Origin: Ostreococcus lucimarinus
Lineage: Eukaryota
NCBI GenBank assembly: GCA_000092065.1
Contig: CP000592.1
Strand: one strand, 5' to 3'
Length of the DNA: 64,000 nt
In this document: positions 27,380-29,890 of the stretch, in pieces
Numbering within the stretch: position 1 is the first letter of the stretch
Layout: each line of letters starts with the position of its first letter
Notes under the pieces: model-generated
The model's database searches: none
The model's input: the letters and a program-made list of their open reading frames with translations, nothing else
Told to the model about the DNA's origin: nothing
Translations under genes and position numbers: made by a program

Positions 27380-29890
27380 ATGACGGACGTGATCACCATG
27401 TCGTCTTCGTCAGACGATGATCGACCGCCGATCGCACGCGGTGGAGAGGCATCGTCTTCTTCATCGGATGGCGACGCTGGGTTCAATGGAGACGTGTTGG
27501 CGACTGAGTTGGCAAAGATGCCGCTCGCGCTTCGCGCGCAGCTCACCGCCGCGGCCAAGTCTTCGACGAGCACCAACCAGCGCACGCTCGTGAGCGAGTG
27601 GTCGGAGAAGACGAAACTGTCAGTTGATTTGGTAGAAAAAATCTTCGCTTCCTTTGCGAAATCGTCGCGTGCGTCAGCGGAGGCAGCGCGCGAAACCGTC
27701 GCGCGCCTCGCCGCCGCCGACGGAGTCGACTCCGCCGATGGAGACGAGTACTCGCCGGGTGCCGCCGAAGCGGCGACTGCGGATGACGACGCTATGGACG
27801 ACTCGCCGAAAATCCCAGCGTCTAAGCAGCCGGTGCTCGAGGAAGGTGTTCCGTTTCCTGGAATTACTCGAGACGTCTCCGTGGACGTCGCGTGCGGCGA
27901 TCTCAGAGGCGTTCTCGAGCTGAAGAAGGGATACAAGAAACTTCAGGAGCGCGTGCGATGCGAGGGCGAAATGATGACGCCAAGTAAGTTTGAGAGCGAG
28001 GGCGGGCGCGGGTCGGCGAAGAAGTGGAAGATTAGCTTACGCATCGTGCGTTCGGATGGAAAACTCGGGATGACTGTCGGAGACTGGATCGACAGGTACG
28101 GATACCATCCGTCGGGCTTAGTCATAGGTGGGGAGGTGGCCGACGCGCCGGCGCCGCCGAAGGTGAAAAAATCAGCGTTTGAGTCACAGCTAGAGACCTT
28201 ACTCGACTACGATGGGGACATTGCCTTGCGTAGCATCGCTAAATTTGTACGAATGATGCGAGAGACGACCAAGCCTAAGGAACGCGGACTTTTGCTCCAA
28301 GTCATTCGAGGCACGAAAAACAAAGAGTGTTTGCGCCAGTTCGGTCAGTCGGCGGAGATTAAAGGATTAGACACGCTGCAAGATTGGATGGACGACGCTA
28401 AAAGGAAGTTTCAATCCACTCTTTTAGTGAGCATTCTTAGAACATTGAAGATGATTCCAGTTACATTGGACGCGCTCACGCGTACTTCGATCGCCCCGAA
28501 TCTGGGCAAGTTGAAGTCGTACGTGGTGCCAGAGGGTGAAGAGGAGTTTGCCAACACCGAGATGAACACTAAAGTTGTCTTGTTATCCAAGTCGGTCAAG
28601 AACGCGTGGAAAGCGCAAATCACGGCGCCCCACACGGCGCCGGCGCCGGCGCCGAAACCGGCGCCCGTGGTCAACCCGGCGCCCGCGGCGGTGCCCGCGT
28701 CCAAGGCTGTCGAACTCGGTGACGATGACTTGTTCGGTGCGAAGTCGAAAATCTCACCAGCGCCTTCGAAAGCGCCGGTGGTGAAGACCACGGTGACGAA
28801 AATCACGATGGAAAAGAAGGTGGCTCCGCCGAGCGTGACGACGAAGAAACCGAGCGTGAGCGTGAACGATTTGCTCAAGACGAGTTCGCAATCGACGAAG
28901 ATCACCGCACCGCCGGTGAAGACGAAAGAGAAGGCAAAGGACGATGATAAAATCGACGAGAAGACTGGGAAGAAGCGCAAGCGGAAGACGGTGACTTGGG
29001 CGAAGGATGAAAATTTGGAGCAAGTCAGAATCTTTGAGAAGGACGCCAAGCAACCGAAGGAAACGGCTTTCCCAGATCCGACGAGAGACGGTGGGACCGA
29101 TGGCGCAAGCCGCAAGGCGCTCGAGAGGAGAGACAGGGAAGTGGAGGCGGAAAGAAAGGCGGCGGCAAAGCAGCACCAGCGTCGACTCGACGAGATGCGC
29201 GCCACGACAACCTGGCGCCCGCCTCGGCGCATCGAAATTCCTCGTTGGGAAGAGGAAGAGTCGGACAGAGTCCCCGGTGACGAGTCGGAAGAATCCCAGA
29301 GAATTCTTCGCATCGAAGCCGAGAAACCGAGCGTCAAGTACAGGAGTCTGAAAGACATTCCAGACTCTCCGGCGGAGGCGCCGAACGAGGACGCGCAACT
29401 CGACCTCGACAACACGCCAGCCTTCTACATGAAGTTTCAAGAAGAACCGCTGTCTCAAGACAGCGGCGAACCTTCACCCGCGATGCCCCAACAGCTCCAA
29501 ATGCCACAGGCTCCGGGATCGTTACTTCCTCCGAACATCGACTTTGCCGCGCTTCAACGCACGTTGCTCGCCGCCAACGCGCCGCATCAAAACGCCGGTT
29601 ACCAGTACCCCCCGCAGGCGCCTCTTCAACACGCCTTCCCACCACCACCCCCTCAAGCCGCGTACGCACCTCAGCCCCCTTACCAACCCGGCGCGCAACA
29701 GCCCGCGCAGCGACCGACGAAACAGGCGCTCGTCGGCGGCGCCCCCGTGCCCGCGCAGCAGGCGCTCAACCTCAACGGCAAGACGTACCGCGGCGTGTGC
29801 GCCTTCTTCAACACCCCTCGAGGATGCAGCTGGGGAGATAAGTGCGGCTACCTCCACCAAGTCGGCGTCAATCCTCCGTCGACGGGTTGA
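27380..29890 (+). CDS. SAND-domain protein with a PNUTS/PPP1R10-like architecture: TFIIS-N-like domain, TVTW PP1-docking motif and C-terminal CCCH zinc finger.
   Basis: SAND core: [55 protein letters not shown] (a KDWK-type motif). TFIIS-N-like helical bundle: [34 protein letters not shown]. Docking motif: [14 protein letters not shown] (RVxF-type). C-terminus: [27 protein letters not shown] (C-x8-C-x5-C-x3-H). Confidence 0.65.
   Translation: [836 protein letters not shown]

Follow-up and report, generated by a model that had tools for sequence, protein, structure and literature searches.

Can a SAND domain and the modules of PNUTS, the nuclear targeting subunit of protein phosphatase 1 (PP1), belong to one and the same algal protein? 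The question is raised by a gene at positions 27380-29890 of a 64 kb window of Ostreococcus lucimarinus (contig CP000592.1). The window means the whole stretch of DNA analysed here, positions are given in its numbering, and residues (aa) are numbered along the 836-aa product. A first-pass annotation had assigned to this gene a SAND domain fused to a PNUTS-like PP1-regulatory module. Its coordinates prove exact, with a single open reading frame (ORF) running from ATG to stop, and the two strings that it quoted are found at aa 209-222 (nt 28004-28045) for the SAND core and at aa 531-544 (nt 28970-29011) for the basic patch with its RVxF motif. On the whole, the gene is almost certainly the PNUTS (PPP1R10) orthologue of Mamiellophyceae, equipped with a genuine SAND domain, and the sequence comparisons indicate a PNUTS orthologue proper, rather than a protein that is merely 'PNUTS-like'. 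The assignment is made because the matches of the protein's TFIIS N-terminal domain (TND), an invariant dock for PP1, a colinear block after the dock, a terminal CCCH finger and the disorder profile all point to PNUTS, and because the automatic annotation of the Joint Genome Institute (JGI) already names the family 'protein phosphatase 1 regulatory subunit 10' (PPP1R10).

The PNUTS modules

The TFIIS-N-type helical domain proposed in the first-pass annotation is recovered by sequence, profile and fold searches. With phmmer against all PDB sequences, the four best matches of the window protein are the TND of PNUTS/PPP1R10 (aa 270-380, E=3e-6). A profile of 13 orthologues raises the PNUTS TND match to E=1.5e-8, and none of the other TND families searched with it (TFIIS, IWS1, Med26, elongin A) is matched at E=0.01. 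The top Foldseek match for the region is 9ci7_A, from the PNUTS:Tox4 complex, with a template modelling (TM) score of 0.80. In Pfam the window protein alone reaches 17.2 bits for TFIIS-N, below the cut-off of 20.6; its orthologues P0077, P0078 and P0106 pass PF08711 with 31.3, 37.4 and 47.9 bits, respectively. Since the window protein's own Pfam scores are below threshold for TFIIS-N and for the CCCH finger, both assignments rest on PDB, fold and orthologue evidence.

The dock was examined in a conservation set of 13 orthologues with 51-72% identity (alignment A1). Among them, the block G530-KKRKRK-[T/S]-V-T-W-A...L-E-Q-V-R-x-F-E-K-D-x-K (G530-K557) varies hardly or not at all, with K536-T-V-T-W540, L546, V549-R550 and F552 invariant throughout, and it stands within otherwise variable disordered sequence. 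The mean identity is 0.77 in the dock, 0.75 in the post-dock block and 0.83 in the CCCH finger; the disordered segments flanking the dock and the post-dock block have 0.50-0.59. The RVxF motif in a basic patch, as first proposed, holds good in the Ostreococcus-type orthologues, where [T/S]VTW is invariant. When aa 520-690 are searched against the PDB, the PNUTS peptide crystallised on PP1 (4moy_B) is the sole match, with an E of 0.65 that is not significant alone. Distant homologues were collected by searching 1.84 billion representative proteins exhaustively with a profile, which gave 418 matches. The extended dock motif is present downstream of the TND in 24 of the 48 distant TND-bearing homologues, against 0.01 expected from shuffled sequences. 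These include Gonium pectorale, Picochlorum soloecismus, Rhodelphis marinus and an animal-type sequence KKAVSWAESDKLVQVCYFEMDETERVNV, and the window dock is colinear with the docks of the Gonium, Picochlorum, Rhodelphis and animal-type homologues. The more distant orthologues all keep a [VIL]-x-W...LE.[VA]..F dock. With this, and with both SAND and the TND recovered, neither of the two outcomes that the first-pass annotation had named as refuting it occurred. In the published PP1 docking code of PNUTS, RVxF-phi-phi-Phe-Arg (PMC10731240), the dock of the window protein would occupy the RVxF, phi-phi and Phe positions, and we regard it, judging from its sequence, as a putative PP1-binding site.

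Three PNUTS hallmarks had been claimed to stand in PNUTS order. This order is correct for the TND, the RVxF motif and the CCCH finger, and besides them we find a further colinear block, a putative WDR82-binding region. Its elements in the window protein are a helix (575-609), M606..W612-R613-x-P615, G633..S636-E637, I660-P-D-x-P..E666-A-P-N-E-D and L674-D-L. A MAFFT alignment of 17 post-dock regions presents an amphipathic helix, M.....W-[RK]-x-P, G..S.E and [IV]P[DP][ST]P.E.P in order, and the blocks align colinearly with those of PNUTS homologues having no SAND (Rhodelphis, Gonium, Picochlorum and the animal-type P0163). In human PNUTS, a helix at 429-452 is followed by the WDR82-binding domain at 455-523, with WVCPRPLVL and IPLD (PMC12187157), and the order of the post-dock blocks is the same as this human order.

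For the C-terminal finger, the Pfam match of the window protein alone (zf-CCCH_4) is weak, with E=0.0069 and 16.6 bits against a cut-off of 24.6. The four ligands, C807-x8-C816-x5-C822-x3-H826, and most residues between them are invariant in the 13 orthologues, and the finger is 85% identical to that of P0080, an orthologue without SAND described below. It is terminal in the window protein, in the same position as the zinc finger of human PNUTS (residues 900-940; PMC12278311), and the CCCH finger annotated earlier is confirmed in its ligands as well as in its PNUTS-like place. As for the overall fold, the full-length AlphaFold2 (AF2) model is folded only at aa 38-113, ~155-250 and 265-415, plus a long helix at 575-609, and the remainder is disordered, which is a PNUTS-like profile. 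A two-domain model of SAND and TND, built from a diverse alignment, has a mean predicted local distance difference test (pLDDT) score of 88.8. The helical module at aa 38-113 is common to the Ostreococcus-type orthologues and P0080 (aa 16-81, E=5e-6) and absent from the Micromonas-type; compared with Pfam and Foldseek, it matches no known family or fold.

The SAND domain

What had been described as a clear SAND core is detected here by sequence, profile and fold searches alike. Pfam PF01342 matches aa 167-223 with 36.3 bits (cut-off 22, E=4.4e-9), and phmmer against the PDB matches the SAND domains of Sp100b and SP140, ranking after the PNUTS chains. The AF2 pLDDT over the domain is 82-95. With the N-terminal half of the two-domain model, Foldseek returns SAND structures only, all with probability 1.00 and TM 0.57-0.66, among them the SP140-DNA structure 8j70 (E=2.4e-4, TM 0.65), GMEB1 1oqj, 1ufn and Sp100b 1h5p. 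The mean identity of the domain is 0.71, versus 0.31-0.35 in the neighbouring N-terminal linkers. The SAND domain is genuine and under selection.

Within the domain, KKWK is the equivalent of the SAND KDWK motif for DNA contact. It aligns with KNWK of Sp100 and is the counterpart of 89-RKWK-92 in ULTRAPETALA1 (ULT1). K214 and W216 are invariant in the 13 orthologues, with K or R at position 217, and K-x-W-[KR] is retained in every fusion carrier from Ostreococcus to Dolichomastix. For ULT1, it was reported that the SAND domain tethers PRC2 to nucleosomal DNA via 89-RKWK-92, with a purine preference only, that R89D/K90D in this motif abolishes DNA binding, and that the beta-sheet face of the domain contacts the CXC domain of SWN, a subunit of PRC2 (bioRxiv 10.64898/2026.06.16.732580). 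The spacing between SAND and TND is ~10-15 residues in Ostreococcus, and in the family the linker is of low confidence and ranges from 10 to ~60 residues.

Two further observations concern SAND in other proteins. The most divergent SAND-PNUTS carriers are P0087 (L001, GCA_013565555.1, ~70% GC) and P0089, which have an insertion of 20-40 residues within SAND, just ahead of the K-x-W-R motif; it represents a genuine loop or else an intron left unspliced in the gene call. In addition, five of the profile-search matches, namely the very large proteins P0088 (1640 aa), P0090 (2334 aa), P0099, P0112 and P0154, have 3-6 tandem SAND domains each, pointing to SAND expansion in genomes that are probably of protists or algae.

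Distribution of the fusion and an orthologue without SAND

To describe the distribution, six module hidden Markov models (HMMs) were mapped onto all profile-search matches. SAND, TND, dock, post-dock block and CCCH finger occur in this order in every Ostreococcus-type sequence, and the full five-module order is found in ~10 clusters that are mutually less than 50% identical. The carriers include Micromonas pusilla (XP_003054792/C1MGK8) and a Dolichomastix tenuilepis transcript (MMETSP0033); with Ostreococcus, Micromonas and Dolichomastix among them, the fusion spans the class Mamiellophyceae. PNUTS homologues without SAND are found in Gonium (Chlorophyceae), Picochlorum (Trebouxiophyceae), Rhodelphis and an animal-type sequence. 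A search for orthologues in other chlorophytes, as advised in the first-pass annotation, yields both the fusion and its SAND-less counterparts. Full-length orthologues are 47-67% identical to the window protein; the nearest named relative is that of Ostreococcus mediterraneus (47%), and metagenomic Ostreococcus-type relatives have 54-67%. The O. mediterraneus MMETSP transcript is marked 'complete' and codes for the identical architecture, so the fusion is expressed in a single mRNA. With a continuous ORF, ~10 divergent clusters and a complete transcript, the fusion is a genuine single protein.

P0080 (L002 3001-5553) is a protein of 850 aa from a source of ~48% GC that is abundant in marine metagenomes including Tara and is probably Bathycoccus. 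In P0080 the helical module at the N-terminus is retained together with the TND, the dock, the post-dock block and the finger. The module HMMs find no SAND in P0080, and a SAND ORF or exon was sought upstream and none was found. The gene order of its locus is as in the window, with a Bms1-like gene upstream, and a coiled-coil gene (E=1e-53) followed by a Macro+CRAL_TRIO gene downstream. In pairwise BLASTP the window protein and P0080 match in the CCCH finger alone, so that the orthology is shown by the module HMMs together with synteny. The parsimonious account places the gain of SAND at or before the base of the sampled Mamiellophyceae, with a later deletion in the P0080 lineage.

Comparison with known systems

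Animal PNUTS/PPP1R10, which forms PTW/PP1 with Tox4 and WDR82, shares with the alga protein the TND, the RVxF, phi-phi and Phe positions of the dock and the CCCH finger. The alga protein differs in having ~260 extra N-terminal residues (helical module, acidic linker and SAND), and in having neither RGG repeats nor a conserved Arg motif (R420). DNA binding in animals comes from a separate subunit, the HMG-box protein Tox4, which is constitutively bound to the PNUTS TND (PMC12278311), whereas in the alga the corresponding candidate is the fused SAND. A comparable arrangement is known from kinetoplastids, where JBP3 is the DNA-binding subunit of the PJW/PP1 complex (PNUTS, JBP3, Wdr82, PP1-8e; PMC10731240). 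This complex acts in RNA polymerase II (Pol II) termination and has in common with the alga protein the PNUTS scaffold and the RVxF-phi-phi-Phe dock, while its Wdr82-binding region and its DNA-binding module have putative counterparts in the alga. However, kinetoplastid PNUTS is small (264 aa) and has no recognisable domains, and JBP3, which recognises base J, is a subunit of its own.

In land plants, LUMINIDEPENDENS (LD), the Arabidopsis equivalent of Ref2/PNUTS, belongs to the homeobox family, has a TFIIS domain and binds APRF1 (WDR82) and TOPP4 (PP1) (PMC7616277, PMC12704789). Like the alga protein, it has a nucleic-acid-binding-type domain directly N-terminal to TFIIS-N and a largely disordered scaffold; the domain is a homeodomain in LD and SAND in the alga, and the Pfam scan of the window protein gives no homeodomain match. 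P0125, an LD-like protein with homeodomain and TND, is a significant match of the alga family profile. In the dock (TVTW) and the finger the alga protein is nearer to animal PNUTS than to LD, which is not known to have a C-terminal CCCH finger. On the best reading, SAND and the homeodomain were acquired independently of each other at the same position.

The likeness to ULT1 concerns the basic SAND motif, RKWK in ULT1 and KKWK in the window protein, and the tethering of PRC2 to nucleosomal DNA by the ULT1 SAND provides a functional analogy to the tethering of PP1. The window protein scores 13.2 bits on the ULTRAPETALA model PF23292 against a cut-off of 25, and lacks the zinc-rich C-terminal domain of ULT. 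As the ULT-specific Pfam model fails, 'ULT-like' is a misnomer; in Micromonas pusilla XP_003054792 this label covers only ~12% of the protein, and the remainder is PNUTS.

Proposed mechanism and alternative explanations

Taking identity and mechanism together, we consider the following composite explanation likely. A SAND domain would have been acquired directly N-terminal to the PNUTS TND. The largely disordered protein would dock PP1 via KTVTW (RVxF), V549-R550 (phi-phi position) and F552 (Phe-motif position), and the WD40 protein WDR82/Swd2 would bind the conserved post-dock block from W612-R-x-P onward. The TND is expected to read the disordered TND-interacting motifs (TIM motifs) of elongation factors, and the CCCH finger may contact RNA. 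The holoenzyme would dephosphorylate the C-terminal domain (CTD) of Pol II (Ser5-P) and/or Spt5 and in this way control pausing and termination, a role that is modelled on the animal PTW/PP1, yeast APT/CPF and plant LD-APRF1-TOPP4 modules. To this the helical face of SAND, with K214-K215-W216-K217, would add a cis contact to DNA or nucleosomal DNA, a role that falls in trans to the HMG-box protein Tox4 in animals and to JBP3 in kinetoplastids, and possibly in cis to the LD homeodomain in land plants. That SAND acts as a cis tether to DNA or nucleosomes is held somewhat less firmly than the composite as a whole, and we lean towards it. PP1 might be tethered to specific DNA sites, as was suggested at first; yet SAND domains can bind DNA with little specificity, as in ULT1, and a short or low-specificity motif is as likely as a defined site.

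Several points weigh against this explanation. Micromonas-type orthologues displace the basic residue of RVxF (GLSW, GVTW, GIGW), so that the affinity for PP1 may vary across the family. The Arg motif of PNUTS (human E419-R420) was sought by alignment and has no conserved counterpart: the residues aligned to it are Q558-P559, with K557 and K560 nearby, of which K557 is invariant. Of the docking elements looked for by motif scanning, the RVxF and phi-phi positions are found while the Arg motif is not conserved. AlphaFold gives no predicted Arg-motif contact for Leishmania PNUTS either (PMC10731240), hence the motif is not universal in the PNUTS family. Moreover, the beta-sheet face of SAND domains serves for contacts with proteins as well, as it does in ULT1 with the CXC of SWN. 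The chromatin immunoprecipitation (ChIP) sites of LD show no homeobox motif in spite of its homeodomain (PMC12704789), which calls for caution in assuming site-specific tethering. Finally, P0080 does without SAND, and the SAND contact would accordingly be dispensable for the core function.

Some of these points would also fit a PNUTS orthologue whose SAND is an adaptor to proteins or chromatin complexes, for example in histone-modifier recruitment, or one that replaces or regulates ligand binding by the TND. With its beta-sheet face the ULT1 SAND binds the CXC of SWN in PRC2, the plant equivalent LD cooperates with the chromatin modifiers FLD and SDG26, in Ostreococcus no more than about 10-15 residues separate SAND from the TND, and the domain is dispensable in the syntenic P0080. 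We nevertheless consider such an adaptor unlikely, for the best-conserved feature of SAND in all carriers is the KDWK-equivalent basic motif on the helical face, and the CXC-binding loops of ULT1 are reportedly specific to ULT1. Besides, a low-confidence linker varying from 10 to ~60 residues argues against a fixed interface between SAND and TND.

Quite improbable, in our opinion, is that the protein is primarily a sequence-specific SAND transcription factor, recruiting no PP1 and having PNUTS-like features that are incidental or vestigial. NCBI and UniProt do name XP_003054792 / C1MGK8 'ULT-like transcription factor', a tetrapeptide of the RVxF type is short and frequent by chance, and the basic position is weakened in Micromonas-type docks. 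But the dock, post-dock block, TND and finger are conserved as much as SAND or more (0.75-0.83 versus 0.71), and they are colinear with homologues from several eukaryotic lineages including the animal-type. P0080 keeps all but SAND, which makes the PNUTS module the core of the gene. The 'ULT-like' transcription factor reading is rejected, as the protein fails PF23292 and has no ULT C-terminal zinc domain, with the remainder being PNUTS-like. An artefact, in which two adjacent genes for SAND and PNUTS were merged into one ORF or an ORF arose by chance in GC-rich DNA, might be thought of since long spurious ORFs are frequent in high-GC genomes and several overlap the locus in other frames. Yet there is no stop codon between the modules, the MMETSP transcript is complete, 10 or more divergent clusters, taken from independent assemblies, have the architecture in continuous form, the conservation of amino acids is structured by domain, and the AF2 domains are confident. 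A gene-fusion artefact is rejected on the continuous ORF, the divergent orthologues and the complete transcript, and its probability is close to nil.

Genomic setting

The features of the gene and of its surroundings are collected in Table 1. The 64 kb are ordinary nuclear DNA of a gene-dense, GC-rich (~60%) picoalga with mostly intron-free genes, and the encoded proteins include Topo I, SPT16, Bms1, XPG and an RSH enzyme. Genes of PP1 or WDR82 were sought within the 64-kb window and none was found, the sole WD40 gene being Sof1.

Table 1. Positions of the SAND-PNUTS gene, its parts and neighbouring features in the window
Feature	Positions	Strand	Basis
SAND-PNUTS protein, complete single-exon ORF, 836 aa	27380..29890	+	ATG to stop, no interruption
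N-terminal helical module, aa 38-113	27491..27718	+	AF2 helices, pLDDT about 62-79
SAND domain, aa 152-252	27833..28135	+	PF01342, phmmer, Foldseek, AF2
KKWK (K214-K217), equivalent of SAND KDWK DNA-contact motif	28019..28030	+	orthologue conservation, Sp100/ULT1 alignment
PNUTS-type TFIIS N-terminal domain, aa 262-416	28163..28627	+	phmmer, profile, Foldseek, orthologue Pfam
Putative PP1-docking region, aa 526-567	28955..29080	+	basic patch, then RVxF, phi-phi position, Phe-motif position
RVxF motif T537-V-T-W540	28988-28999	+	invariant block
L546..V549-R550 (phi-phi position), F552 (Phe-motif position)	within 28955..29080	+	4moy_B alignment
Helix and putative WDR82-binding region, aa 574-690	29099..29449	+	AF2 helix, colinear blocks
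C-terminal CCCH finger, aa 795-832, C807-x8-C816-x5-C822-x3-H826	29762..29875	+	conservation, position
PLAC8-family Cys-rich gene	25898-26575	-	Pfam 34.1 bits, just below cut-off 34.4
T/G-rich tandem repeats, upstream flank	26919-27023		
T/G-rich tandem repeats, downstream flank	30155-30194		
Coiled-coil protein gene, ~600 aa	30185-31990	+	
904-aa ORF, MORC-type ATPase with bromodomain and MBD	57611-60325	-	

Directly upstream of the SAND-PNUTS gene, in divergent orientation, lies the PLAC8-family gene, which is not common to the P0080 locus. Directly on the 3' side is the coiled-coil gene, whose product ends in a J-domain-like 'WHPDKF' motif; it is kept beside P0080 too (L002 5830-7809, E=1e-53), and has no Pfam family except for a weak PH_LRR1 match in the L002 copy. 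Both intergenic flanks carry short T/G-rich tandem repeats with a 5-nt period, namely TGGAT/TTGGATTGCG/GATTC upstream and TTGAT downstream, both within CG-rich simple repeats. These repeats may belong to the promoters or terminators of this genome. Farther away, the 904-aa ORF combines a MORC-type GHKL ATPase (HATPase_c_3 + Morc6_S5) with a bromodomain and a methyl-CpG-binding domain (MBD), an unusual fusion of ATPase and chromatin reader.

Significance

The combination of SAND and PNUTS had been thought undescribed. In the literature searched, with 'SAND domain' combined with PNUTS, PPP1R10, or TFIIS plus protein phosphatase 1, no paper was found, and to this extent the statement stands; against it, automatic annotations as PPP1R10 and as ULT-like exist, and LD is a precedent. 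A DNA-binding domain N-terminal to a PNUTS-type TND is not new, as it is known in LUMINIDEPENDENS. The alga protein unites two known ideas, the SAND tether and the PNUTS scaffold, and is a modest, conserved variation that reveals neither a new mechanism nor a new protein family. It does correct an annotation, in that the 'ULT-like transcription factor' of Micromonas is a PNUTS orthologue.

PNUTS-PP1 controls the pausing and termination of RNA polymerase II. The finding of a different DNA-binding fold fused at the position known from land plants, and lost in a syntenic relative, lends comparative support to DNA contact as a part of the logic of the holoenzyme, and the SAND fusion serves as comparative evidence for a repeated acquisition of DNA-binding modules by PNUTS-PP1 holoenzymes. 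A wider reading, which we offer as possible rather than probable, is that the DNA-binding module of PNUTS-PP1-WDR82 is required but interchangeable, having been reinvented at least four times: as Tox4 in trans in animals, as JBP3 in trans in kinetoplastids, as a homeodomain in cis in land plants and as SAND in cis in Mamiellophyceae. If this is true, SAND-PNUTS would be a 'Rosetta-stone' protein, showing direct DNA contact to be integral to how the phosphatase finds transcribing chromatin, and P0080 would be a natural deletion experiment that predicts a compensating trans-acting partner in its lineage. As a compact, mostly intron-free and transformable picoalga, Ostreococcus is suited to the study of DNA contact by PNUTS.

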